Positions 489-45,970 of a DNA stretch of 64,000 nt are shown piece by piece. The DNA lies in the NCBI GenBank assembly GCA_016719535.1, contig JADJYX010000011.1, positions 747 through 64,746 of the forward strand. Direction: 5' to 3'. The translations under genes and the position numbers were made by a program. The first letter of the stretch is position 1. Every line of letters begins with the position of its first letter. This DNA comes from Rubrivivax sp. Lineage in GTDB: Bacteria > Pseudomonadota > Gammaproteobacteria > Burkholderiales > Burkholderiaceae_C. A model generated the notes under the pieces. It worked only from the letters and a program-made list of their open reading frames with translations, was not told the origin of the DNA and searched no databases.

Positions 489-1616
489 TCAGGGCCGCCG
501 GCCCGCCCGCCAGCGGCAAAGACCCCCGAGCAAGACGGCGAGCAGCAGCGACACGATCAAGAACCAGGCACCGAAGACAGCAAGGGCATAGCCGATGTCC
601 AGGGCATCACCGTCACCGAGCCGGAACTCGCGTTGCGCATCGTGCGCAAGCCCCAGAGACAGGGCGGCCGCGCCGGCCAGCGCGCCGCCTGCCAGCGCCA
701 GACACAGCCACCACCGGCAGCCGCGGCGTCGGGAATGCGGCTCGGCGCCGCCATCCTGGCCTGCCCCTTCCGTGTCCCAGGGCTGGGTGTCGTACAGCGC
801 CTGTACCCGGGCGCCGTAATGGTTGACCCGGGTGGCGTTGATGTTGTTGTAGAGGGTGGCCACATGCGACACCGGGGCGTCAGGCGGCAAATGCGCGCGG
901 ATGCGCAACAGCATCTCTGCGCCGGCCCGGATGTTGGGCTCTGCCTTCTCGAGATCGCTGCGTGATCCGAAGGTGTTGCCCCAGTAGGCGACATTGATGT
1001 TCATCGGCAGGATGGACTTGTTCCGGCCGATCGCCGAGAGCGGCGCATCGTAGTAGCCATGCGTCGTTTCCATGTACATGATGGCGCTGATCAGCCTGGC
1101 ATCGACGCCGGTGTCCCTGGCCACTCTGGCAATGGTGGCGCTGTGCCGGTTGACCGCCGAGAACGAGGACAGTTCGACCAGCGGTTTGCTCCCATCGGCC
1201 GCGCTGTTGTCGGCAATCTTGAACCAGCAGGTCGAGCGCTGGTCGACCATGGCCGCCTTGCGGCTGCCCGGCGGGCAGTCCGGCGCCTCCTCGCACAGGC
1301 CACCCGACAGCGGGTCCGGCAGGTAGACGACGCCGGGCCGGTCATCCTTGCTGAAGATGTAGTTGCGGCCGTCGGCTGTTCGCTTGCGGCAACCGACCTG
1401 GTGGTACAGGTACCAGTTGATCTCGGCAGGATCGCGGGTGCGGAAGTTGTAGAAGCAAAGATCGAGTGCCGACATGCCTTTCGACACGACTTCGCTGCGC
1501 GTGGCCAGCGTGAACCAGCTGTCGCCGTCGTTCACCTTGTGCTGCAGCGCGTCCGCAGGACGGTAGCCCAGCTCCGGCCTGGCTGGCTTCCTCTCGATCG
1601 CGTTGCCTGCGCCCAT
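489..1616 (-). CDS. LysM-like N-terminal domain + lytic transglycosylase (lysozyme-like) domain + C-terminal two-helix membrane segment
   Basis: Within ORF 489..1664; the ATG at 1616 has an AGGAGG RBS. HKVNDGDSWFTLA is a LysM-like start; SAIMYMETTHG (catalytic Glu position), NIRAGAEML and LYN match SLT motifs; two hydrophobic stretches at the C-terminus. Confidence 0.75.
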   Translation of the reverse strand: MGAGNAIERKPARPELGYRPADALQHKVNDGDSWFTLATRSEVVSKGMSALDLCFYNFRTRDPAEINWYLYHQVGCRKRTADGRNYIFSKDDRPGVVYLPDPLSGGLCEEAPDCPPGSRKAAMVDQRSTCWFKIADNSAADGSKPLVELSSFSAVNRHSATIARVARDTGVDARLISAIMYMETTHGYYDAPLSAIGRNKSILPMNINVAYWGNTFGSRSDLEKAEPNIRAGAEMLLRIRAHLPPDAPVSHVATLYNNINATRVNHYGARVQALYDTQPWDTEGAGQDGGAEPHSRRRGCRWWLCLALAGGALAGAAALSLGLAHDAQREFRLGDGDALDIGYALAVFGAWFLIVSLLLAVLLGGLCRWRAGRRP

Positions 1617-2237
1617 GATGCGGCCTCCTGCCGGATGCGCGGCCGTCGCGGGTGCGCCGGCCACCAGCCATGGTAGCCAGGTGCCGCGCGCTTGGCTGCA
1701 TCGACCGTCGCGGCGGGTCCCTCATCCTGTCGATCCGGACCGCGCGGCGTCGATCCGGACATCGCCCGCAGCCCGCTGGGGACGTCGGCGGCTGACGGTC
1801 GATGGGCTCGATGACCCCTGTGATCGCCCCCTTGAATGGAGGGGAAAGGTGTGGTCCACAACCTCGATCCAGCCAACGTCGATCCCGACATCCGAGGCCT
1901 GCACGCGAGCGTGGGCTCGACGAACGCCCCGCAGGATGGGCCCGGGCAGACCGCGCTGGCCGCTGCGGACGCTTGCCGTCTGCTGCTGACTTGCCAGCTC
2001 GAAGGTCGGGTGGTGTTGCGGTGGCCGTCGGGGTTCGGCGCGGCGATCGGCTGCTGCAGCGTGATGCGGCCGCACGGCCTGCCTGCGTCGCCGGCCGTTG
2101 CACGCCGCCTGAACGCGAAAGAGGGGCCCGGGCGGGTACTGGCTCCGCGGCGCGGTGACCAGGCCGTCGACGCCTGCGCCTCGAGGGGCGACCCGGTCAC
2201 CCAGGGTGCCTGGGCCCGGTGACCGCTCGTGCAGCGA

Positions 2238-2714
2238 TCAAGGCGTCCAGCGCATCAGCGTGGCGAGCAGGATCACGATGCCCAGGCCGAGGTTGATCGA
2301 GACCCACGTGCGGATGCGTGCCAGCGCCGCGCCACCGGCAGCCCATGCGGACGCCGCCACGGCGCGGTCGAGCTTGCGGTAGAGCACGAAGCGGATGTGC
2401 AGGAAGATCGCCACCATCACCACGCCCAGCACCGCCATGATGGTCCAGGCCAGCGGCATCTCGAAGCTGCCGCCCGACTGCACGACCTGCCTGGCCACGC
2501 GGCCCAGCATCCACACACCGCTGGCCAGCGTCAGCAGCGAGGCCGCCAGCACGGCCTGGAAGAAGCGGCCGAGCACGTCGTGCATCAGCCGCAGCCGCAG
2601 GGGCGCTTCGAGCGGGGCGACGGCCGGACGCAGGAAGAAATGCGCAAACACCATGCCACCGATCCACACGATGATGGACAGCAGGTGAAGGGTCTTGAGG
2701 GTTGCATCGATCAT
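2238..2714 (-). CDS. CopD/DUF4149-like four-helix membrane protein
   Basis: LHLLSIIVWIGGMVFAHFFLRP N-terminal motif and four hydrophobic segments. Confidence 0.75.
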   Translation of the reverse strand: MIDATLKTLHLLSIIVWIGGMVFAHFFLRPAVAPLEAPLRLRLMHDVLGRFFQAVLAASLLTLASGVWMLGRVARQVVQSGGSFEMPLAWTIMAVLGVVMVAIFLHIRFVLYRKLDRAVAASAWAAGGAALARIRTWVSINLGLGIVILLATLMRWTP

Positions 2715-2727
2715 CGAAAAGTCCCGT

Positions 2728-3333
2728 TCATATCAAAAACCAGTCCAGGATCCACGCGCTGCCCCAGGCCCATGCCACCAGCATCAGACCCGCGGTGGCA
2801 AACAGCGCCAGCCCCGCCATCGCCAGCCCCAGGACAAGCGCAACCCCATCGCGAAAGACCAGCCCCAGCCCGACGAGCATCAGCGCCAGCGCCGGCAGCA
2901 TGTTGCCGAAGGGAATCGGCAGCACGATGATGAGGGCCATCACCCCGATCGCAGCGGCGGTCCCTGACCGCGCGCGCGCGACTGCAAGGTGGCTCAGCCG
3001 GGCCCTGGCGAAGCGTCCGGCCATGGCATAGGCAGATGCCAGCATCCCCAGCACCCGCCGCGCCCAGTGGTGCGGCAACTCGAGTTCGGCCACCCGCCGG
3101 GGCAGGCAAGCGCAGGCGTGGCCGCGCCACATCGCCGCCGCCAGCGCCGCGATCCCCAGGCCGAGCACGGTGCCCACGCCCGGCACGGGCAGCAGGCAGG
3201 GCGCTGCCATCAGCAGCAGCAAGGTGCCGTGCGCCGCAGGCCCATGGGCCTGCCCCAGCGTTTGCATCGACACCCGCCCGGCGGGCAGGGCAGCGGCTGC
3301 TTCACGCAGCCGCTGCACGATGGATTCGGTCAT
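2728..3333 (-). CDS. exoD: ExoD-family (exopolysaccharide synthesis) membrane protein
   Basis: APCLLPVPGVGTVLG and LPIPFGNMLPALALMLVGLGLVFRDG are typical ExoD motifs. Confidence 0.85.
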   Translation of the reverse strand: MTESIVQRLREAAAALPAGRVSMQTLGQAHGPAAHGTLLLLMAAPCLLPVPGVGTVLGLGIAALAAAMWRGHACACLPRRVAELELPHHWARRVLGMLASAYAMAGRFARARLSHLAVARARSGTAAAIGVMALIIVLPIPFGNMLPALALMLVGLGLVFRDGVALVLGLAMAGLALFATAGLMLVAWAWGSAWILDWFLI

Positions 3334-17326: not shown

Positions 17327-18466
17327 CTACGGGGTTGCGGGGGATGAACTGAAACGTTGGATGGCGAACGGCTCGAGCGGTACGCCGGGCTGGCCGTGGG
17401 CCACCCATTGCGCCAGCGCCTCGCCGACCGCGGGGCCGGTCTGGAAGCCGGCGCCGCAGAAGCCGAAGGCATGCAGCAGCTGCGGGTGGCGCGTGGACGG
17501 GCCGATGACGGGCTGGTGGTCGGGCAGCGAGCCCTCGACGCCGCTCCAGAAGCGGATCACCTGCGCATGAGCCAGCGGCGGAAACAGCTCGGCCATGCGC
17601 TGGCACAGCTCGGCAATGGCCTGCGCGCGCGGCGCGGCATGCAGCGGGTTGCTGGCGGCGCCGCGGCTGCCGCCCATCACACAATTGCCGCGCGTGGTCT
17701 GGCGGCCATAGATGCCGCCGCCCTCGACGCCGATATTGACGTCCATGAAGCGCGGCAGCGGCTCGGTGACGGCCATGCCGGGGTGGATGCTTTCCATCGG
17801 CGCGTCATCACCGAAGGTGCGCGCCAGCTGCAAGGCCCAGGCGCCGGCGCAGTTGAGCAGCCAGCGGGCGCGCACGCTCAGGCCCTGGCCGTTGCCCAGC
17901 ACGAAACACTGGCCATCGTGATCGAGTTCGGTGACCTCGCAGTGCTCGATCACGCAGGCACCGGCGGCGCGGGCGGCACGCGCAAAGGCCGGGCTCACCA
18001 GGCGCGGATTGGCATGGCCGTCGCCCGGGCACCAGGAGGCACCGATGGCCTGCGCGCCCAGCCAGGGGTAGGCGGTGCGGAAGGTGGCGCCGCTGCTCAG
18101 CTGCAGGTCCAGGCCGTGGCCGTCCACCAGGCGGGCATAGGCTTCCAGGCGTGCCAGGTCGGCCTCCGACCGCGCCAGCTTCAGGTGGCCCGAGCGCACA
18201 TATTCGCCGTCGATGCCGACCAGCGCGGGCAACTGCTCCCACAGCTGGCGCGAGCGCAGCGCCAGCGGCAGCTGCGCCAGCCCGCGGCCCTGCACGCGCA
18301 CGCCGCCGTAGTTGACGCCGCTGGCAGCGGCGCCGCAGTGGCCACGTTCCAGCAGCGTCACCGTCAGGCCGAAGCGGCGCAGAAACAGCGCCGCGGCACT
18401 GCCGACGATGCCGCCGCCGACGATGGCCACGTCGGCCTGCAGGGTCCCGGATGCAGGCTCAGTCAT
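17327..18466 (-). CDS. FAD-dependent oxidoreductase (OoxB/HcnC/DAAO family)
   Basis: VAIVGGGIVG, ASGVNYGGVR, GDGHANP and GFCGAGFQTGP motifs. Confidence 0.9.
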   Translation of the reverse strand: MTEPASGTLQADVAIVGGGIVGSAAALFLRRFGLTVTLLERGHCGAAASGVNYGGVRVQGRGLAQLPLALRSRQLWEQLPALVGIDGEYVRSGHLKLARSEADLARLEAYARLVDGHGLDLQLSSGATFRTAYPWLGAQAIGASWCPGDGHANPRLVSPAFARAARAAGACVIEHCEVTELDHDGQCFVLGNGQGLSVRARWLLNCAGAWALQLARTFGDDAPMESIHPGMAVTEPLPRFMDVNIGVEGGGIYGRQTTRGNCVMGGSRGAASNPLHAAPRAQAIAELCQRMAELFPPLAHAQVIRFWSGVEGSLPDHQPVIGPSTRHPQLLHAFGFCGAGFQTGPAVGEALAQWVAHGQPGVPLEPFAIQRFSSSPATP

Positions 18467-19859
18467 CCCGTTCCCCGGGCGGCACCGGCGTGGACTGCGC
18501 CAGCGCGGCCCCCAGCACGGCCACCGGCACCGGCTTGACGGGCGGCTGGCTGCGCAGACGGCCGACCTCGGACAGCGCGCAGCCGGCGGCGTCGGCCAGC
18601 AGCCGCGCCGCGGCGGCGCCGCACATCCGGCCCTGGCAGCGGCCCATGCCGATGCGCGTCAGCGCCTTCAGGCGGTTGAGCTCGTGCGTGCCGGCGTCGC
18701 GCACGCACGCGCGCAGCTCGCCGGCCGTCACCTCCTCGCAGCGGCAGACCACCAGCTCGTCGCCGGTCTGCGCGGCCCAGTCGGCGGGCGGCGGGCTCAG
18801 CACCTCGACGGCGGCGCGGAAGCGCCGATGCGGTCGCTGCGCACGCTCCAGCATGGCGGCGCGTGCGGTGTGCACGGTCTGGCCACGGTCCTGCAGCAGC
18901 GCCAGCGCGGCCCTTTCACCGGCCAGCTCGGCGGCATCGGCGCCGCCGATGCCGGCGCCGTCGCCGGCCAGATAGACGCCGGCCACGCTGCTGCGGCCGG
19001 CGGCGTCGCGGCGCGGCAGCCAGGCCTGGTCCAGCTCGTCCCAGTCGAAGGCGCAGCCGGCCAGGTCGGCCAGTTGCGTCTCGCTGCGCAGGCCGTGGCC
19101 GAAGGCGACGGCGTCGCAGTCGGTGACGTGGTCCGTTGTGCCCTGCCGCCAGTGCAGGCGCTGAACGCGGCCATCGCCTTCGGCACGCCGCAGCTGCACG
19201 CCGCGCCGCACCGGCACGCCGGCCAGCCGCAGCTGCGCCAGGTAGAGCGCCCCCTTGGCGGCCATGGCTGGGCGCGCCAGCAGGCCCGGCAGCGCGCGCC
19301 GCGGGGCGTCGGGCGGCGCGGCGTCCAGTACCGCCAGCAGCTGCGCACCGGCCTTCAGGTATTGCCAGGCCACCAGGTAGAGCAGCGGCCCGCCACCGGC
19401 CAGCACCACGCGCGGGCCGATCAGCGTGGCCTGGGCCTTCAGCGCGATCTGCGCGGCGCCGAGCGTGAAGACGCCCGGCAGCGTCCAGCCGGGGAAGGGC
19501 AGCACGCGCTCGGCGGCGCCGGTGGCCAGGATCAGCGCGTCGACGCGCAGCGTGTCGGCACGGCCGTGTTGCAGCAGGTGCAGCGTGCGGTCTTCGATCT
19601 GCCACACCAGCGTGTCGGGGCGATGGTCGATGCGGCCCTGCAGCGCGGCGAAGCGGTCGAAGAGGGCCTGCGCCTTGCCGGCCTCGAACCCGTACAGCGC
19701 CGACGGCGGGCGCTGGCGCGGGACCGGCGGCTGACGGTAGACCTGGCCGCCGATGCGCGGCGCCTCGTCGATCAGCACCGGGCGCAGGCCGGCGTCGGCC
19801 AGCGTGGCGGCGGCGCGCAGGCCGGCGGGGCCGGCACCGACGATGGCCACGGTGCTCAT
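18459..19859 (-). CDS. FAD/NAD(P)-binding oxidoreductase with BFD-like Fe-S domain (OoxA/HcnB family)
   Basis: IVGAGPAG, LATGAAER, GWTLPGV, CRCEEV and TRIGMGRCQGRMC motifs. Confidence 0.9.
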   Translation of the reverse strand: MSTVAIVGAGPAGLRAAATLADAGLRPVLIDEAPRIGGQVYRQPPVPRQRPPSALYGFEAGKAQALFDRFAALQGRIDHRPDTLVWQIEDRTLHLLQHGRADTLRVDALILATGAAERVLPFPGWTLPGVFTLGAAQIALKAQATLIGPRVVLAGGGPLLYLVAWQYLKAGAQLLAVLDAAPPDAPRRALPGLLARPAMAAKGALYLAQLRLAGVPVRRGVQLRRAEGDGRVQRLHWRQGTTDHVTDCDAVAFGHGLRSETQLADLAGCAFDWDELDQAWLPRRDAAGRSSVAGVYLAGDGAGIGGADAAELAGERAALALLQDRGQTVHTARAAMLERAQRPHRRFRAAVEVLSPPPADWAAQTGDELVVCRCEEVTAGELRACVRDAGTHELNRLKALTRIGMGRCQGRMCGAAAARLLADAAGCALSEVGRLRSQPPVKPVPVAVLGAALAQSTPVPPGERDD

Positions 19860-20149
19860 GCCGGCCGCCCCGTCAGCAACTGCATGCCCGCTTCCAGCGG
19901 CGTGCTGCACCCGCGCAGGCGGCGGCCGTCGGCCAGGCTCATCCAGCAGTCCTGGCAGGCGCCCATCAGGCAGAAGCCGGCGCGCGGGCTGGCGCTGAAT
20001 TCGGTGTGGCGCAAGCGGTCGCCCTGCGCCAGCACGGCGGTCAGCACGGTGTCGCCGTCGACGCCGGTGCAGGCCACGCCGTCGAGCGTGAAGGGCAGCG
20101 GCCTGCCTGGCGAACCGGCCAGTCGCACGAGCAGCGGTCGGGTCGTCAT
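19856..20149 (-). CDS. Small 2Fe-2S subunit (HcnA/OoxC-like)
   Basis: C-terminal part of ORF 19856..20977: MTTRPLL...GFCLMGACQDC...GC; overlaps both neighbours by 4 nt. Confidence 0.88.
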   Translation of the reverse strand: MTTRPLLVRLAGSPGRPLPFTLDGVACTGVDGDTVLTAVLAQGDRLRHTEFSASPRAGFCLMGACQDCWMSLADGRRLRGCSTPLEAGMQLLTGRPA

Positions 20150-20937
20150 CGCTGCCCCACCAGCACCTTGTCCAGGCCGTACAGCCGGTCCAGCAGCAGC
20201 ATCACCACCGCGGTCAGGCCGACGATGAGTGCCGACACCGCGGCCATCATGGGGTCGATCGACTCGGTGGCCAGCATGTACATGCGCACCGGCAGCGTCA
20301 CCGTCTGCGGGCTGGTGATGAAGATCGACATCGTCACCTCGTCGAAGCTGTTGATGAAGGCCAGCATCCAGCCGCCGGTGATGCCGGGCAGCATCAGCGG
20401 CAGCGTCACGCGGCGGAAGGCTGTCCAGTGGCTGGCGCCCAGCGACAGCGCGGCCTGCTCGATGCTGCGGTCGGCCCCCGTGAGTGCCGCCACCATCAGC
20501 CGCAGCGCATAGGGCGTGACGATGACCACGTGGGCCAGCGTCAGCCACAGCGCCGAGCCGCGCACCTCGAGCAGCGCAAACAGCCGCAGCATGGCCACGC
20601 CCAGCACCAGGTGCGGCACGATCAGCGGGCTCATCAGGAGGCCGTTGAGCGCCTGGCGGCCGGGAAACTCGTGCCGCGCGATGGCCAGCGCCGCCGGCAC
20701 CGCCAGCACCACCGCCAGCGTGGCCGACAGCGTGGCCACGAACAGGCTGTTCCAGAAGCTCTGCACCAGGTCGCCATGCGCGAACACGGCGCGGAACCAG
20801 CGCAGCGAATAGTCGCCCCAGGGCACCTGCAGCGTATCGGCCGGCGTGAAGGCCACGAGGCACACCACCACCAGCGGCGCCAGCATGAAGGCCACCACCA
20901 GGGCGTTGAAAGCGAGCGCGACGAGGCCGTTCTTCAT
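20146..20937 (-). CDS. ABC transporter permease (PotC-like)
   Basis: MKNGLVALAFNALVVAFMLAP...EQAALSLGAS EAA loop, SFDEV. Confidence 0.92.
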   Translation of the reverse strand: MKNGLVALAFNALVVAFMLAPLVVVCLVAFTPADTLQVPWGDYSLRWFRAVFAHGDLVQSFWNSLFVATLSATLAVVLAVPAALAIARHEFPGRQALNGLLMSPLIVPHLVLGVAMLRLFALLEVRGSALWLTLAHVVIVTPYALRLMVAALTGADRSIEQAALSLGASHWTAFRRVTLPLMLPGITGGWMLAFINSFDEVTMSIFITSPQTVTLPVRMYMLATESIDPMMAAVSALIVGLTAVVMLLLDRLYGLDKVLVGQR

Positions 20938-32663: not shown

Positions 32664-34154
32664 AGGCCGCCGCTTGTACCAGCGGATGGTCTGCTCGCGC
32701 AGCGGCCGCGGCGGCGCGCCGGCGGCCTGCAGCGTCTGGTCGAGCCGGTGGCCGGCCTCGTCGGCCAGGGCCGCCTCGCGCGCGGCGCGCACCTGCTGCG
32801 CCCGCTCGGCGGCCGGCCGGGGGCCGGCGGACAGGTGCTGCACGATGTGCAGCAGGTTGTCCTTGCCGCGTTCGTTGGTGCTGCCATAGCCCTTGATCAG
32901 CCGCCCGCAGCGCGCCAGCTCCAGGCCCAGCGCCGGGTCCTCGCGCGTGCCGCGCTCGACGGCGGCCAGCCACTGCTCGATCAGCTTCTGTTCCAGTGCA
33001 AACCGGCTGCCGCGCCGGCGCTGGCCCTGCAGCGCGGCGACGAAGCGCAGCGCCAGCGTGCCGGTCACCGTGTGCGTGCCCACCTTCAGCGGCAGCGCCC
33101 AGGGCGCGCGCCCGGCGGCCACCCGGCGGCGGTCCCAGGCGATCAGCCGGTCGGCCAGGGCTTGCGGCAGCAGGGCCGCCAATTCGGGCACTCCGGGCTT
33201 GAAGTGGTCGTAGACGGCGAGCAGTTCGCCGTCCTTCAGCCCGACCTCGCGCTGCACGCGGCGCAGCCGGCTGGCGGCCAGCTTGGCAGCGGCCACGCGC
33301 ACGATGTCGTCGAAGGCCATCCACAGCGCCAGCCAGCGCACCAGCTCCTGCGTCACCGGACCTTGCATTCGGCCTTCCGCGGCTTCGATGCGCGCCAGGC
33401 GTTCGTCGTACAGACGGGCATAGGCTTCGTCCTGGTAGTCCACCAGCCGCTGGCGCGCCAGCGTGCGCAGGTCGGGCGCCGGGGTCGCCGCCAGCGCGGC
33501 GTCGACCAGCGCCTGCTGCGCACGGCGCGCGGACACGGCGTCGAAGGCGAGCGCAAAGCCGCGCAGGCTGGCCTCCACGCCCTTGCCGCTGGCGCGGATG
33601 GTCTCCTCGTAGCGCGCACGCGCAAAGGGCAGGGCGCCGCTGGCCGCCACCGCGCCCAGCAGCACGGCGCTGATCACGGTGCCGGCCTGGCGCGCCAGCG
33701 CATTGAAATCCAGCAGTTCGGCCGCGCGCACGTGGCGCTGCAGCACCGCCAGCAGGGCGGCGGTGTCGACGCGGTCGTCGCCCTGGCCCATCTTCTCGGC
33801 CACGGTGAGCGCGCGTGCGGTCGAGCTGATGACCAGCGTGCGCTCGGCGCTGGCCATGCCGTTGCCGACATGGCGCACGGTTTCCAGCAGCTCCGACGAC
33901 AGCAGCAGGTCGATCTCGCCGGCCACCGGGTTGAGGCTGAAGACCGGGCGCCGCGGGCCGAGTTCGGCCTGCGGCCGCGGGTGCACCTCGACGTAATAGG
34001 TGGTGGCGCCGGTGCGCTGCGCGACGCCGGGGATCGAGGTCGACTGCGCCGCGTGGCCGGCGTGCACCGCGGTCAGGTACAGCCATTCGGCGAGCACGCC
34101 GCCGCCCTCGCCGCCGAGGGCGCAGACGAGGATGGTGATGGGGCGGTCGGTCAT
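32655..34154 (-). CDS. Indolepyruvate oxidoreductase beta-subunit family protein with C-terminal extension
   Basis: ALGGEGGGVL, STSIPGVAQRTGAT; long C-terminal helical domain (WMAFDD...IKGYG). Confidence 0.88.
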   Translation of the reverse strand: MTDRPITILVCALGGEGGGVLAEWLYLTAVHAGHAAQSTSIPGVAQRTGATTYYVEVHPRPQAELGPRRPVFSLNPVAGEIDLLLSSELLETVRHVGNGMASAERTLVISSTARALTVAEKMGQGDDRVDTAALLAVLQRHVRAAELLDFNALARQAGTVISAVLLGAVAASGALPFARARYEETIRASGKGVEASLRGFALAFDAVSARRAQQALVDAALAATPAPDLRTLARQRLVDYQDEAYARLYDERLARIEAAEGRMQGPVTQELVRWLALWMAFDDIVRVAAAKLAASRLRRVQREVGLKDGELLAVYDHFKPGVPELAALLPQALADRLIAWDRRRVAAGRAPWALPLKVGTHTVTGTLALRFVAALQGQRRRGSRFALEQKLIEQWLAAVERGTREDPALGLELARCGRLIKGYGSTNERGKDNLLHIVQHLSAGPRPAAERAQQVRAAREAALADEAGHRLDQTLQAAGAPPRPLREQTIRWYKRRPAG

Positions 34155-35122
34155 TCGCCGCGGATGCCGGCTTCGCGGATGAAGGCGCCGAAGCGCTGGC
34201 GGTCGCGCTGCTGGGCGGCGATGAAGTCGGCACGCGACTGTGACGCCAGCTCGGCACCGAGGGTCTTCATCACCTCGGCCATCTTCGGCGTCGCCAGCGC
34301 CTTGTTGATCTCGCCGTGCAGCTGCGTCACCACCGGCGCCGGGGTGCCGCCCGGGGCATAGATGCCGAAGGTGGTATCGGCGTCGAAACCGGCCATGCCG
34401 GCCTCGGCCAGCGTCGGCGTATCGGGGTACTGCGAAGCCCGCCGCGGGCTGCCCACGGCCAGCAGCCTGAGCCTGCCTTCCCTGGCATGGCGCAGGCCAG
34501 GGCCGGGGTCGAACATGAACTGCACCTGGCCGGCCAGCAGGTCGGTCAGCGCCGGTGCGGCGCCCTTGTAGGGCACATGCGTGGCCTCGAAACCCGCCTG
34601 GCGCTTGAACATCTCGCCGGCCAGGTGCGGGCTGCTGCCGGTGCCGGCCGAGCCGAAGCTCAGCTTGCCCGGGTTGGCCTTGGCGTAGGTGACGAACTCC
34701 TGCGCGGTATTCACCGGCACCGAGGGGTTGGTCATCAGGTAGACCAGCACGCGCGCCACGCTGGCCACCGGCACCAGGTCCTTCTCGGCGTCGAAGGGCA
34801 TCTTCGTATAGAGGAAGGGGTTCACCGTCACCGCGCCGCCGCTGCTCATCAGCAGCGTATGGCCGTCGGCCGCCGACTTGGCCACGGCATCGGCGCCGAT
34901 GTTGCCGTTGGCGCCGGGCTTGTTTTCCACCACCACCTGCTGCCGCAGCTGCTCACCGAGCTGCTGCGCCAGCGCGCGGCCGATGACGTCGGCGGCGCCG
35001 CCGGGCGGAAAATTGACGACCAGCTTCAGCGGCTTGCCGGGAAAGGCCTGCGCGAAGGCGGCCGGGGCGGCCAGCGCCAGGGCGGCGCCGGCGGCGAGGG
35101 CGATGCGGCGGGTCACGGTCAT
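34151..35122 (-). CDS. Bug/TctC tripartite tricarboxylate transporter substrate-binding protein
   Basis: VVNFPPGGAAD, VENKPGANG, GSAGTGSSPHLAGE, HVPYKG. Confidence 0.95.
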   Translation of the reverse strand: MTVTRRIALAAGAALALAAPAAFAQAFPGKPLKLVVNFPPGGAADVIGRALAQQLGEQLRQQVVVENKPGANGNIGADAVAKSAADGHTLLMSSGGAVTVNPFLYTKMPFDAEKDLVPVASVARVLVYLMTNPSVPVNTAQEFVTYAKANPGKLSFGSAGTGSSPHLAGEMFKRQAGFEATHVPYKGAAPALTDLLAGQVQFMFDPGPGLRHAREGRLRLLAVGSPRRASQYPDTPTLAEAGMAGFDADTTFGIYAPGGTPAPVVTQLHGEINKALATPKMAEVMKTLGAELASQSRADFIAAQQRDRQRFGAFIREAGIRGE

Positions 35123-41043: not shown

Positions 41044-41601
41044 TCAGGCGTGCAGCCGGCTCGATCGCGGCACCGACGCCAGCAGGAAGTCCATCTGGTC
41101 GACCAGGATGCGCCGCCCGCGCAGGATCATGTCCTCGTGCAGGCTGGGCACGTAGGGCAGGTAGAGCAGGCTCATGCGCGCCTCTTCGGGCAGCCGGTTG
41201 CCCTTGCGGCCGTTGCAGCCGCGGCAGGCGGTGATGCAGTTCATCCAGCTGTCGCTGCCGCCGCGCGACACGGGCACGATGTGCTCGCGCGTCAGCTCGT
41301 CGAAGTGGAAGTGGCCGCCGCAATAGGCACAGATGTGGCGGTCGCGCGCGAACAGCTTGGGGTTGGCCAGCGCCGGCGATTGCCGCCAGGCACGCGACGG
41401 GACGGCGCCGCGCACCGCGACGATGGGGTGCACCTCGATGCGCGACTGCAGCCCGGTGGTGCGCTGGATGCCGCCGCGCAGCACGTGGAAGGCCTGGCCC
41501 AGCGTCCAGGCGATGGCGTCGCTGGCATAGAGCACCGCCGCTTCCTTCGGTGAGATCCACGCCTGGGGCCGACCCGAAATGTCGAGCTGCAGCACATCCA
41601 T
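41044..41601 (-). CDS. HNH endonuclease
   Basis: RDRHICAYCG, TREHIVPVSRGG, NCITACRGCNGRK. Confidence 0.9.
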   Translation of the reverse strand: MDVLQLDISGRPQAWISPKEAAVLYASDAIAWTLGQAFHVLRGGIQRTTGLQSRIEVHPIVAVRGAVPSRAWRQSPALANPKLFARDRHICAYCGGHFHFDELTREHIVPVSRGGSDSWMNCITACRGCNGRKGNRLPEEARMSLLYLPYVPSLHEDMILRGRRILVDQMDFLLASVPRSSRLHA

Positions 41602-41633
41602 GGGCCGAGCGTACCGCATGCGGCCGCACCGGC

Positions 41634-43656
41634 TCAATCGACGGCTGTGATCTCGGGGCTGCTCGTGGGTTCGCCGGGGGCGGCGGCGAAGACCTCGCCG
41701 GCAAAGGCCTGCCGGTGGCCGCGGTCGTTCAGCGCCCACATCAGCAGCCCGTCACCGTCCATCGGGCGCGCCAGCAGAAAGCCCTGCAGCTCGTCGCAGC
41801 CCAGTTCGGTCAGCATGCGCTGCTGCTGCACCGTCTCCACGCCCTCGGCCACCACCTTGAGCCCGAGCGCATGCGCCAGCCGCACCACCGCGTCGACGAC
41901 GGCGCGCGCGTCGGCGCTGTGGCCGAGGTCGGTGACGAAGGCGCGGTCGATCTTCAGCTCCTTGGCCGGCAGCTTGCGCAGATAGGCCAGGCTGGAATAG
42001 CCGGTGCCGAAGTCGTCGATCGACACGCTGATGCCCATGGCGCCGAGCTCGCGGAAGATCTGCTGCGCGACGTCGGTGTCCTGCATCGCCGCCGTCTCGG
42101 TGATCTCGCAGGTCAGCAGCGCCGCCGGCGCGCCATGCCGCTGCAGCGCGCGGCGCAGCCGCTGCGCCAGGTCGGGCTGCTGCATCTGCTGCGCCGAGAC
42201 ATTGATCGCCACGCGCAGGCGCAGGCCGTGGTCGCACCAGCGGCGCAGTTCGCGGCTGGCGGCCAGCATCACCCAGTCACCCAGCGGGCCCATCAGCCCG
42301 TGGCGCTCGGCCAGCGGGATGAAGACACCCGGCGAGATGCGCCCGCGCGTCGGATGCTCCCAGCGCAGCAGGGCTTCGACGGCGGTGACGCGGCCGTCCT
42401 GGGCGTCGATCTTGGGCTGGTACTGCAGCGCCAGCGCATCGCCGGCGATGGCGGCGCGCAGCGCCTGCAGCAGCTCGAGGTCGGTCTCGCTGGCATCGGC
42501 ACCGTCGGCGGCAAAGGGGCGATGGCGTTGCCCGGCCCGCCGCGCCTGCCGCACGGCCTGCTCGGCGGCGCCGATCAGCCGCTGGGCATCCAGGCCGCCG
42601 GGACCGGTGACGCTGCCCACGGTGCAGAGCGGGCGCAGTTCGCGCTCACCAGCGACGATCGGGCGGCCGACCGCGGCGATGACACGTTGCGCCAGCCGTT
42701 CCACCGCCGCCTGCTCGGCCACGCCCTGGGCCAGCAGCAGAAAGTGGGCGTCGCCCAGCCGCGCCAGGCGGTCGCTGCCGCGCTGCAGGTGCGCCAGCCG
42801 CCGCGCCACCTTGTCCAGCGCCCGTTCCGCCAGCGCCGCGCCGAGCTGCTGGACCAGGCGATCGACGGCATCGACCTCCACGCGCAGCACGGCAAAACCC
42901 TGGCCATGGACCAGGGCCTGCTCGAGGTGGCGTTCGAATTCGCCACGGGTGATGACGGCGGGCTCGCTCGCCGCGGCCGGCGCGGCTTCTTCCGGCGGCG
43001 CGGCGGCGGGCGCCGGCTTCGTCGCCCAGGCCTGCAGCGCCAGCAGGCCGAGCAACGCCGCCAGCAGCAGCCAGGTGCCGCCACCGACGGTGGCCGCGGG
43101 GCCGCTGGCGGCCGCGGCGCCGCACAGGGTGCCCACCAGCACCGCGCTGCCGATGCGCGCGCGCCGGCGCTCCGGGCCCTGGCGCAGCAGCAGCGCCGCC
43201 AGGGCCGGCGCCAGCGCCGGGGCCAGGGCCACGGTCACCAGGTCGGCGGCGGCCAGCGAGCGGGCGCCTGCCGGCTGCAAGGCCCACCAGGCCGGCGCGG
43301 CCGCCAGCAAGGCGGCGGCAGCCGCGCGCGCACGGGCCGGTCGGTCCCACCAGCTGGCAGCCAGCAGGGCCAGCAGGGCCACCAGCGCCGGTGCGGCGGC
43401 ATCGGCCAGTGTCGGCGGCGCAGGGCCCGTCAGCAGCCGTGGCCAGCCGAGTGCCAATGCCAGCAGCAGCAGCGTACCGGCCTGGGTGGCGGTGCGCAGC
43501 GGCGGGCGGCGGGCGGCCGCCGGCGGGCCGCGCGGGGGTGCGCAGCGCGCGCGTGGCGGGTGCGGTCGCGCGGTCGTACTGCTGTGCACCCAGCCAGGCG
43601 AGCGCGGCCGTGCCCAGCAGGGCGGCCAGGCCGAGGGTCAGCGGGTTGTCGTCCAT
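41634..43656 (-). CDS. Membrane-anchored degenerate-GGDEF/EAL phosphodiesterase, with one frameshift near 43500-43570
   Basis: The ATG at 43656 (MDDNPLTLGLAALLG) is out of frame with ORF 41634..43589. The GGDEF site is degenerate (RLGDAHF); the EAL motifs EALLRW, DDFGTG, ELKID, EGVE and QG are intact. Confidence 0.85.
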
Positions 43657-43688
43657 GGGTGACGCGGGGCGCGGGGCTTCGTCAAGGT

Positions 43689-45761
43689 TCAACCGGCGGC
43701 GCGTGCCACCTCGCCCAGGGCCTGGGCGATGAACTGGCCGCGTTCGATCGCCGCCGCCAGGCCGGCGGCGCGCAGCTTGTGCAGCGTGGTGCTCGTCATC
43801 GAATGCTTGACGGCGCTCTGGCGCCCGCTGAAGACGAAGAGCGAGCGGTCCAGGCTGCGCCAGACCAGTTGCGCATTGGTCCAGCGGCCCTGGACGAACA
43901 GCCGGCACAGGGTGCCGGGTTCGAGCGCGCCGAGCCAGGCTTCGCAGGCGGCATGGGCGCGCTGGCTGGCTTCGGGGCCGGGGCCCATGTCGATCTGCAC
44001 CGTGGCCAGGGCCTCGTGCAGGCCGAGCGGATCGACCGCGGTGTGCACGGCCGGCCCGGTGTCGGCTTCATCGTCGGCCGCGTCCTCGCTGTCGGCGGCG
44101 CCGCCGCCCGCATGCAGCGCCGTGGCCGCGGGTCGGGTGTCGTCGACGCTGTGCAGCGTGTGGCGGGCGTCGGTCCAGGGCCTGCGCAGGCTGCGGCCGA
44201 GGTCGGCCAGCTCGGCCTCGACGCGGGCCGGCGGCAGTCCGGCCTCGGTCAGGCCCAGCCGCGCATGGGTCATGCAGCGCGTATAGACATCCGCCGCCAG
44301 CGCGCGGTTGTGCGGCCGGCTGCAGGCGTCGAGCAGGGTTTCGATCATCTCGGCCTGCACCTGGAACTGGGTGCTGTCGAAGCCGTGCTGCTGCGCGCTG
44401 TGCGCCAGCGCCGTGGTCCAGGGCCCGACCAGAAACTGATGCAGCGCGGCCGGCACCGGCGTGCCGCGCAGCTGCTGCAGGATCTGCTCGCGCACGCGCG
44501 TCTCGATCTCGTCGCGCACCAGCTGGGCCTGCATGACGGCGGCCTGCGGGGCCAGTTGCCGTGCCTCGGCGTCGAGCCGGTCGGAGGCGGCGTCGTCCAT
44601 CGCGTCCAGCGCCACGCGCAGCTGCGTGGCATCGGGCGGGTCGGTCTGCTCCAGCCGGCTGACGGCGGCCTCGAAGGCGGCGCCCGGCTGGCCGGCCTGC
44701 GTGAAGTCGATGTCGTCCAGCACGGCGCCGGTCGATACCAGCCGGTCGAGCAGCTGCCACAGCGGGTGCTCGGGCAGGCGCCACAGCTCGGGCTCGCTCA
44801 CCGCCATTCGCCGGGCCGGCGATTCCAGGCGGCGGATCAGCGTGCGCGTGCCCTCGGTCAGCCCGGCACGGCGGTGCAGCACCGCCAGCAGCTTGGCCAT
44901 GATCTCGGCCGGCGGCTGGGCGGTGCCGTCTTCGCCGCCGTCGGCAGCCGCCAGCCGCCGCAGCGCCTGCTCGGCCATCGCCCAGGGTGCCGCCGAGCCG
45001 GGCATGCGGCCGACGATGTGGGTGCGCAGCGGCCCTTCGTCGGGGCCGTCGTCGCCGTCCGCGCCGGCATCGCGCAGGCCGCCGGGCAGGTCGCGCGAGA
45101 CATAGTGCAGGGGTTGCACGCCCCAGGCGTTGAGCAGCGCCACCTGGTGCGCATAGACCGGGGCCAGCTGGGCACCGAGCGCGGGGGCCAGCCGGCGCAG
45201 CAGGTCCAGCCGCTGCTGGGGTTCGAGTCCGAAGCCGGCGACGCCCTGCCGCAGCCCGCGCGCCACCACCGTCGGGCGCATCGGGTGGGCATCGGGCCTG
45301 ACGTTGCACAGGCCGCGCAGCGCGGAGCAGCGGGCGGCCAGGTCGCGCAGCGTGGCGTCCGACTCCAGCTCGGCGACCTGGACCAGCCGCGACAGGGCGA
45401 TGTCCTCGTCGATGGTGTCCTCGTCCAGCAGCGACAGCGCCTGCACCGACGCCGCGGCGGCGCGGGGCCCGCTGTCGTGGCCTTGCAGCTCCTCGTCGAT
45501 GGCCTGCCCGATGGCCCGCACCAGACCCTGTTGCCAGACCGGGCGCTGCGCACGCAGGCTCTGGCGCAGCGCGGCCAGCCGCGCACGGTCGGCGGGCAGC
45601 GCCGTGGCCTGCGCGGCGCCGTCCAGCGCCTCGACGGCCGCTTCCAGGCCGACGGAAAGCCACTCGCCCAGGCCCTGGTGCAGGGCGCGGGCGAACGCCG
45701 ACAGCGTGGACGAGGCGGATGCGCTGCGGTCGACGGCGACCGGAGCCTGGGCAGCTGGCAT
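43689..45761 (-). CDS. DUF1631-like helical protein
   Basis: LSLLDEDTIDEDI, HPMRP, HPLWQLLDRL, FLVGPW, C-terminal LVWRS..SLFVF pattern. Confidence 0.7.
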   Translation of the reverse strand: MPAAQAPVAVDRSASASSTLSAFARALHQGLGEWLSVGLEAAVEALDGAAQATALPADRARLAALRQSLRAQRPVWQQGLVRAIGQAIDEELQGHDSGPRAAAASVQALSLLDEDTIDEDIALSRLVQVAELESDATLRDLAARCSALRGLCNVRPDAHPMRPTVVARGLRQGVAGFGLEPQQRLDLLRRLAPALGAQLAPVYAHQVALLNAWGVQPLHYVSRDLPGGLRDAGADGDDGPDEGPLRTHIVGRMPGSAAPWAMAEQALRRLAAADGGEDGTAQPPAEIMAKLLAVLHRRAGLTEGTRTLIRRLESPARRMAVSEPELWRLPEHPLWQLLDRLVSTGAVLDDIDFTQAGQPGAAFEAAVSRLEQTDPPDATQLRVALDAMDDAASDRLDAEARQLAPQAAVMQAQLVRDEIETRVREQILQQLRGTPVPAALHQFLVGPWTTALAHSAQQHGFDSTQFQVQAEMIETLLDACSRPHNRALAADVYTRCMTHARLGLTEAGLPPARVEAELADLGRSLRRPWTDARHTLHSVDDTRPAATALHAGGGAADSEDAADDEADTGPAVHTAVDPLGLHEALATVQIDMGPGPEASQRAHAACEAWLGALEPGTLCRLFVQGRWTNAQLVWRSLDRSLFVFSGRQSAVKHSMTSTTLHKLRAAGLAAAIERGQFIAQALGEVARAAG

Positions 45762-45970
45762 GGAGTGACGAATCCGGTGACGAATCGGGTGGCGAGGGTA
45801 ACGGCGGGACAGCGGATCTGAACCTCCGCAGTTTCGGCACCGGCGCGCCGATCTTGATGGCCCACGCCTTGGGCGAGTCAGATCTTTGCGCGCACGGCGG
45901 CCAGCTAGAGATGGACGTCTATTTTTTCTCGCCTGGCGGCCGGTTCGGTCCGTCGGGGCAGGGCAGAATA

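Follow-up and report, generated by a model that had tools for sequence, protein, structure and literature searches.

Does the minus-strand open reading frame (ORF) at positions 489..1664 of the 64,000-nucleotide stretch of Rubrivivax sp. DNA shown above (contig JADJYX010000011.1; hereafter, the window) encode one three-part protein, or two proteins whose genes have run together? An earlier note on this DNA described a LysM-like module, a lytic transglycosylase (SLT) domain and a tail with two transmembrane (TM) segments, and offered two explanations: a toxin joined to its normally separate downstream immunity gene by loss of a stop codon, or a new membrane-tethered muramidase. Our analysis strongly favours a two-gene antibacterial polymorphic effector-immunity module that is read as a single ORF in this assembly. 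The ORF spans 391 amino acids (aa) from a GTG and 375 aa from an ATG at 1616. The ATG is the predicted true start because homologues begin there too (MATSSAIEKKP...) and a GGAGG lies 8 nucleotides (nt) upstream, in agreement with the extent of 489-1616 given in the earlier note.

The nearest protein match (P0001) is 100% identical to the window product over the aligned stretch, yet it is only 310 aa long. Its contig, L001, shares the neighbours of the window (ExoD, CopD and an ABC/MacB operon) and encodes two genes at this position: the 310-aa gene, followed by an 88-aa two-TM gene (ATG...TGA) that overlaps it by 23 nt. Aligned across the junction, L001 reads CATTGACCCGCGCC and the window reads CATT-CCCGACGCC; the junction letters are CATTGACCCGCG in the unfused form and CATTCCCGACG in the fused form. 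Relative to L001, a GA is missing from the window at 729-735 and, four bases on, one A has been gained (net -1), precisely on the stop codon of the toxin, and two further substitutions, at 702 and 705, lie 25-30 nt beyond this microindel. Otherwise, the window DNA is 99.1-99.5% identical to L001 and to L055, a second JGI contig that is unfused like L001. A 79%-identical relative, L002, keeps the TGA at the same position as L001. It had been argued that no minus-strand frame has a stop across the linker and that a single indel could therefore not explain the fusion. The first part is true across 650-830, but the argument fails because the TGA is exactly where the indel falls: a net change of -1 at that stop codon is sufficient to explain the fusion. 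In the window, translation that starts at 752-754, the downstream gene's native ATG, is frameshifted into nonsense; with this ATG now out of frame, the two-TM hairpin of the window can be produced only within the fused chain.

Four metagenome runs (from activated sludge, sediment, freshwater and biofilm) also yielded contigs with the unfused form, and two metatranscriptome contigs cross the junction, both of them unfused. Because these contigs span the junction, they indicate that the toxin-hairpin pair is transcribed, with the caveat that RNA libraries can contain DNA. In total, the TGA after His294 was kept in 8 of 8 other near-identical DNA and RNA sources. In a collection of 15 billion proteins, the fused 375-aa product occurred on one NCBI contig (66,063 nt), compared with 35 contigs for the unfused 294/310-aa toxin and 47 for the free 88-aa protein, one member of which is named 'MAG: hypothetical protein IPM99_22770 [Rubrivivax sp.]' (MAG, metagenome-assembled genome). 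A run search found the exact junction words of the window in no public run. We consider a strain-specific frameshift and a consensus error in the MAG to be about equally probable sources of the fusion.

These data bear directly on whether the ORF represents a genuine new architecture, in which a muramidase would be permanently held in the inner membrane by a two-TM anchor of its own and act in the envelope of the producer. The ORF of the window is open and intact, no frame has a stop across the junction, and the tail is a helical hairpin in an AlphaFold2 (AF2) model, all of which fit such an enzyme. The fused form is nevertheless confined to a single contig and absent from the eight other sources, and no fused toxin-hairpin homologue was found among 47 SLT-domain loci, drawn from a one-genome-per-species collection, or among the hairpin profile matches. 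Moreover, the positive-inside rule would place the enzyme in the cytoplasm, away from peptidoglycan. We therefore regard a new tethered architecture as very improbable. Full-length three-part homologues, which as common housekeeping proteins would have counted against the earlier proposal, were not found either. The combination of LysM-like, SLT and two-TM parts is thus not a protein family; an ordinary two-gene module has been turned into a three-part 'fusion protein' by a frameshift or by an artefact of assembly.

What is the tail, if it is not an anchor? At most of the 47 loci, a protein of 80-95 aa with two hydrophobic segments is encoded from about -70 to +45 nt of the toxin stop. An alignment of 36 members showed a K/R-rich N terminus, TM1, a loop, TM2 with the sequence SWF, and a K/R-rich C terminus; the loop carries the motif (G)xxHN(A/S/P)(Q/M)GEF...(D/N)(Y/F)xY, which in the window reads HDAQREF, and in one subfamily it has a Cys pair. 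A hidden Markov model (HMM) of this family matched a downstream ORF in 37 of the 47 loci (35 abut the toxin stop), and the window was the sole sequence with the match inside the toxin ORF (residues 332-407 of the window ORF). Across 5.8 billion clusters, a profile search returned only stand-alone 'hypothetical proteins' of 79-94 aa without a Pfam entry, plus one double of 171 aa; the window copy itself matched no Pfam or NCBIfam family. Together with the free 88-aa gene of the relatives, these results bear out the suggestion that the tail is a normally separate downstream gene whose upstream stop was lost. Its two-TM character is likewise consistent with the AF2 helices at 302-331 and 335-372, although the tail was modelled without homologues and its placement relative to the enzyme domain is not interpretable.

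A conserved hairpin downstream is how a cognate immunity gene typically shows itself, and from the conservation of the gene pair we infer that this protein has an immunity function. The charge distribution and the disulfide predicted in the loop argue for a topology with both termini inside (N-in/C-in) and a periplasmic loop. A Cys-rich toxin subfamily (with KWCG, LNCP and a C-terminal KGC) pairs with the hairpins that have a Cys-pair loop. Toxin and hairpin thus appear, from the alignments, to co-vary, which suggests direct contact in the periplasm, and both would reside in an oxidising compartment.

Several variants of the hairpin gene were observed. Tandem-doubled hairpins with four TM segments (171-185 aa) occur at L021:14039-14587, L022:10705-11217 and L052:11167-11721, the first of these about 3.5 kb downstream of its toxin gene, and at L046:10381-10690 the hairpin gene is frameshifted and split over two frames. 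In Fibrobacter (L023:1493-2191, L025:10557-11294 and L026:10591-11289), the hairpin is replaced by a protein of 233-246 aa with about seven predicted TM segments, which may represent an alternative immunity family.

In the putative toxin domain of the window protein, Pfam SLT_2 scored 20 bits around the Glu, below the cut-off of 24.3, and two relatives exceeded the Pfam SLT cut-off of 21.3 (L016, 27.8 bits; L023, 22.1 bits). An alignment of 22 sequences revealed invariant E-T-x-H-G-x-Y-D, S-x-L-P-M-N and W, with N-I and Y-N near-invariant; Glu183-Thr184 was invariant in 21-22 homologues. A search of the PDB with the whole protein sequence gave no match, and only the family profile reached MltC (E 1.1e-4) and MltE. 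In the alignment to MltC, LIRAIMYMETTHG is paired with LILAIMQIESSF and DPEKNIRAGA with DPEKNIDTGT, covering the catalytic Glu and the NI..G motif, and Glu183 aligns with the catalytic Glu of both MltC (IMQ(I/T)ESSF) and MltE (AIIAIESGG). The AF2 model had a mean pLDDT of 78.7, rising to about 90-97 in the SLT domain, for which the top 50 Foldseek matches (probability ~1, E from 9e-3, target-normalised TM 0.40-0.52) were almost all MltE, MltC, MltF, Slt and g-type lysozymes. Profile and model together identify the C-terminal domain as a predicted lytic transglycosylase or muramidase of the SLT/GH23 type, upholding the earlier assignment of an SLT domain with a Glu at the catalytic position.

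Like the family-1 lytic transglycosylases and the goose-type lysozyme fold (PF01464, GH23; E. coli MltE, MltC and Slt70, P. aeruginosa MltF), the domain has a catalytic-position Glu at the end of a helix followed by Thr/Ser, as well as the 'dP..NI..G..L' and Y-N motifs. It differs from them in having ILPMN in place of GLMQ and LYNNI in place of AYNxG, in falling below the Pfam threshold in the window protein, and in the absence from that protein of a signal peptide or lipobox. The absence of a signal peptide had been noted before and stands, as no hydrophobic segment precedes residue ~300 in the window's own sequence or in the identical L055 copy. A further difference is that the window-type domain occurs as the C-terminal cargo of polymorphic toxins and not as a housekeeping enzyme.

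This cargo role is evident from where the domain is found. It closes its ORF at the C-terminal end in 47 of 47 species genomes, where no more than 0-48 residues follow. The distribution is sporadic across at least 10 phyla, the loci spanning Acidobacteriota, Proteobacteria, Fibrobacter, Verrucomicrobia, Planctomycetes, Elusimicrobia, Gracilibacteria and others. The domain is joined to at least five unrelated N-terminal regions. Its carriers include Rhs repeats (P0013), SpvB/TcdB/RHS (L012 and L030), PG_binding_1 (L016) and the LysM-like module of the window, and short domain-only forms also occur; protein matches other than P0013 also have unrelated N termini. L012 and L030 encode giants with SpvB, FG-GAP, TcdB_toxin_midN and RHS repeats and a terminal SLT domain, such giant carriers measuring 2,491 aa in Vibrio sp. 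AND4 and >3,513 aa in Pseudoduganella. The last ~160 residues of these Rhs/Tc-type toxins and of P0013 are this very domain, and in L012 and L030 a hairpin gene follows, as it does in the relatives of the window. The window protein differs in having no Rhs repeats; its carrier is a LysM-like module of 100 aa. The C terminus was previously proposed to be cell-wall-lytic, and the recurrence of a predicted SLT-type domain at the end of Rhs/Tc-type proteins agrees with this.

Two observations concern individual toxin loci. The toxin ORFs of L013 (9557-10468) and L032 (9170-10459) each contain one in-frame stop, which in L032, a Gracilibacteria MAG, is probably a recoded TGA. At L050:8470-20392, the P0009 SLT-hairpin pair is flanked by a Ser/Thr kinase gene on one side and, on the other, by a type I-U-like CRISPR-Cas operon (Cas_GSU0053, Cas_GSU0054, Cas3, Cas4-Cas1 and Cas2); an Rhs gene is found 8 kb upstream.

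The Rhs/Tc carriers also help to evaluate a lysis or release cassette, in which an endolysin-like LysM transglycosylase would act with a two-TM protein resembling a class-II holin to lyse or permeabilise the producer, in the way known from phage lysis or type 10 secretion. The resemblance to phage holin-endolysin cassettes is real: the enzyme has no signal peptide, its partner is a small two-TM protein, predicted to be N-in/C-in, with a charged C terminus, and the two genes overlap. Nonetheless, none of the three parts matched a PHROG family, and the surroundings are not those of a phage, given the ExoD, CopD and ABC transporter neighbours in L001 and the lack of any phage family among the first 25 of the 58 Pfam families of the window. 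Copies that are doubled in tandem or frameshifted, as some hairpins are, typify immunity genes, and the same domain and hairpin close giant Rhs/Tc-type ORFs, a signature of toxin and immunity and not of lysis genes. A lysis cassette accordingly seems improbable to us.

The N-terminal module of the effector is itself widespread. A word-index homologue search with this domain alone returned nothing, missing even known relatives, and an exhaustive profile search was used instead. This search found the module in at least 1,227 cluster representatives (50% identity), 661 of them at E<=1e-10, nearly always at residues ~3-95 of proteins of 90-1,070 aa. Among the best 149 members, the C-terminal regions included Peptidase_C70 (9), DUF4347 (6), Het-C, Peptidase_M91, DUF5995, Amidase_2, C92 and C39-like domains, and many had no C-terminal Pfam match. 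The expectation that a conserved N-terminal carrier is combined with exchangeable C termini was thus confirmed. The module occurred in none of the 47 SLT-domain species loci, and the LysM-like and SLT combination is confined to the close lineage of the window (P0002-P0005).

The likeness of this module to LysM holds in part. Pfam LysM matched 41 of the best 149 family members (best E 8e-12), but the window's own module had no LysM match at E<1. Its AF2 model (pLDDT 88.7) comprises a strand at 23-27, helices at 34-74 and a strand at 96-100, and Foldseek returned mostly LysM proteins at non-significant scores (E>=3.6 against the PDB, >=0.5 against BFVD). The top two PDB matches were phage baseplate LysM proteins, which we did not accept as relatives at these scores. 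Ser/Thr kinases with TPR or PD40 repeats flank several genes that encode the module (L069, L073 and L081).

By which route would the effector leave its producer? MIX, FIX, RIX and PIX are N-terminal marker domains of type VI secretion system (T6SS) effectors. The module resembles these and WHIX (PMC12135965) in being a conserved N-terminal domain followed by polymorphic C-terminal toxins, with some members beside VgrG. It differs in that, of the 16 module loci examined, those linked to a T6SS came from only 2 lineages: in one soil lineage the protein is encoded directly after TssG-ClpV-VgrG with TssK nearby, and in a second it lies near a ClpV, most other loci being orphans among housekeeping genes. 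The module is not WHIX itself, which is a bipartite domain of ~450 aa with a WHxxxH motif (PMC12135965). In Acinetobacter baumannii, Tae17AB 'LysM', Tpe4AB and Tpe18AB combine a LysM-type module with a variable cell-wall hydrolase and are VgrG-dependent cargo (PMC6833914). These effectors resemble the window protein in domain architecture, but they are 580-850 aa long with a canonical LysM, and the module described here also precedes domains that do not act on peptidoglycan (Peptidase_C70, Het-C and M91). We put the chance that the effector exits without Sec, most likely as T6SS cargo, at roughly even.

T6SS genes also accompany some copies of the SLT domain, in the order ClpV-[SLT gene]-VgrG-DUF4123-PAAR. 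In three acidobacterial clusters (L003:9947-12699, L006:9920-12883 and L051:873-1904), domain-only SLT genes (167-207 aa) without a hairpin lie between ClpV and VgrG; these may encode a machine-associated transglycosylase or an effector with its immunity gene elsewhere. Such clusters favour a specialised transglycosylase that opens the peptidoglycan of the producer for the assembly of a T6SS-like machine (compare VirB1, EtgA and FlgJ), with the hairpin as its membrane partner or regulator. For the window protein, this would be difficult to reconcile with the lack of a signal peptide for its own periplasmic delivery, with the attachment of the domain to Rhs/Tc carriers and other unrelated N-terminal regions, and with the location of most copies, including that of the window, in orphan islands distant from machine genes. 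A role in machine assembly therefore appears unlikely, with about the same low probability as a lysis cassette.

Under the effector-immunity reading that we prefer, the effector, which has no Sec signal, would be exported by a contact-dependent system, enter the periplasm of a neighbouring cell and cleave the glycan strands of its peptidoglycan through Glu183. The hairpin would sit in the inner membrane in the N-in/C-in orientation, and its conserved periplasmic loop (HNxQGEF) would block the toxin and protect kin. In the fused form, if real, the enzyme would lie N-terminal to an N-in TM1 and would therefore be cytoplasmic and membrane-tethered: a disarmed effector, whose immunity hairpin is possibly still functional. 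On a bolder reading, the fusion may be a real allele that gives a self-neutralised, membrane-tethered, single-chain toxin-immunity protein.

Several points weigh against this reading. No T6SS, Rhs or phage family was present among the first 25 of the 58 Pfam families in the 41 called genes of the 64-kb window, making the module an orphan island. To our knowledge, the immunity proteins of effectors that cleave peptidoglycan glycans are soluble periplasmic proteins or lipoproteins, and a hairpin with a loop of 18-25 aa would be unusual in that role. The hairpin is also missing beside the SLT gene of the three acidobacterial T6SS clusters, and at the junction of the window a real mutation and an assembly error are evenly balanced.

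Comparison with established systems places the module among known kinds. T6SS effector-immunity pairs that target peptidoglycan glycans include Tge/Tgi pairs such as Tse3-Tsi3, and VgrG3-TsiV3. The SleB-like T6EC3 is a further T6SS effector of this type (PMC11148199). With Tse3-Tsi3, VgrG3-TsiV3 and T6EC3 (PMC11148199), the window module shares its predicted target, the glycan backbone in the periplasm of a rival, and the cognate gene immediately downstream, and some relatives of the window lie beside VgrG or ClpV. There is no detectable sequence relationship to the window toxin, and where those systems use a lipoprotein or a soluble protein of the periplasm, the partner here is a two-TM hairpin of 80-95 aa. 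The kinds involved are all known, namely polymorphic effector-immunity pairs, effectors that target peptidoglycan, Rhs cargo and T6SS hydrolases bearing LysM (PMC6833914); the hairpin immunity family, the SLT toxin subfamily and the large N-module family seem to be unannotated. A literature search found no description of any of the three, an absence that is weak evidence. We tentatively suggest, as a possibility rather below even, that the N-terminal module serves a large class of polymorphic effectors as a delivery or marker domain not described before, and that the SLT domain with its HNxQGEF hairpin forms a new effector-immunity family.

Table 1. Features of the module in the window, with residues numbered from Met1.
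Feature	Position	Strand	Details
Effector (toxin) coding sequence, native extent	735..1616	-	294 aa, Met1 (ATG 1616-1614) to His294 (737-735); TGA next in relatives
LysM-like N-terminal module	1308..1601	-	Residues ~6-103; core motif FNF(K/R)TRDPAEINWYL...VGC...PG(I/V)VYLP; from profile and AF2
Cys/Pro-rich linker	1218..1307	-	Residues ~104-133; from sequence; low pLDDT at 105-109
SLT/GH23-like lytic-transglycosylase domain (predicted toxin)	768..1217	-	Residues ~134-283; motifs MYMETTHGYYD, SILPMN, NIRAGA, TLYNN
Codon (GAA) of putative catalytic Glu183	1068..1070	-	Invariant in 21-22 sequences; motif MYMETTHG
Fusion junction	729..735	-	GA absent, extra A 4 nt away (net -1); toxin TGA destroyed, frames joined
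Native ATG of putative immunity gene	752..754	-	GGAAGGGG precedes; overlaps toxin 3' end by 23 nt in relatives
Part homologous to putative immunity protein	492..734	-	Residues 295-375 of fused ORF; stop codon 489-491
TM helix 1, putative immunity module	645..713	-	Residues ~302-324; positively charged SRRRGCRW before
Acidic loop (HDAQREFRLGDGDALDIG), predicted periplasmic	591..644	-	Family motif HNxQGEF; alignment of 36 members
TM helix 2, putative immunity module	519..590	-	Residues ~343-366; positively charged CRWRAGRRP after
Apparent toxin/hairpin cysteine covariation			Alignment toxin columns ~43-46, ~113, ~179; loop columns ~263-280

The surroundings of the module (Table 1) are those of an ordinary chromosome, the 41 called genes of the window including transporters, LysR regulators, a thiolase, HisG and ClpP, among others. 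The toxin-gene ORF has a GC content of ~0.65 and a third-position GC (GC3) of 0.84, compared with a window GC of 0.71 and a GC3 of 0.90-0.95 in most neighbouring genes; these lower values fit an acquired gene. Between the toxin gene and the CopD-like gene is a 570-nt gap (window 1665-2240), which differs from L001 by a 2-nt indel at ~1815. A 128-aa ORF called in L001 within the corresponding gap, on the opposite strand, matched no family and is unlikely to be a gene. In window 3294-3330, where the ExoD-like gene has its 5' end, 12 substitutions in 37 nt separate the window from L001 and none separate it from L055, a second cluster of differences between near-identical strains. Three regions with long plus-strand ORFs (window 18312-20225, 32748-34358 and 41550-45818), with a first-position GC of 0.86-0.90 and a GC3 of 0.80-0.82, passed a crude gene filter; as probable shadows of genes that lie in a different frame or on the opposite strand, these ORFs were excluded from the Pfam scan.

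For annotation, these findings mean that the 375/391-aa 'three-domain protein' comprises two genes and should not be propagated as an architecture, and that its record should mark the fusion as a frameshift or a possible error of assembly. More broadly, the locus points to an unannotated immunity family, an SLT-type toxin domain scattered over at least ten phyla and a very large family of LysM-like N-terminal modules on polymorphic proteins. If a loop of ~20 residues does block a lytic transglycosylase, it would constitute a compact natural inhibitor of this enzyme class, and the pair could represent a new family in which a membrane protein, through its short periplasmic loop, takes the place of a soluble inhibitor in neutralising a toxin that cleaves cell-wall glycans.

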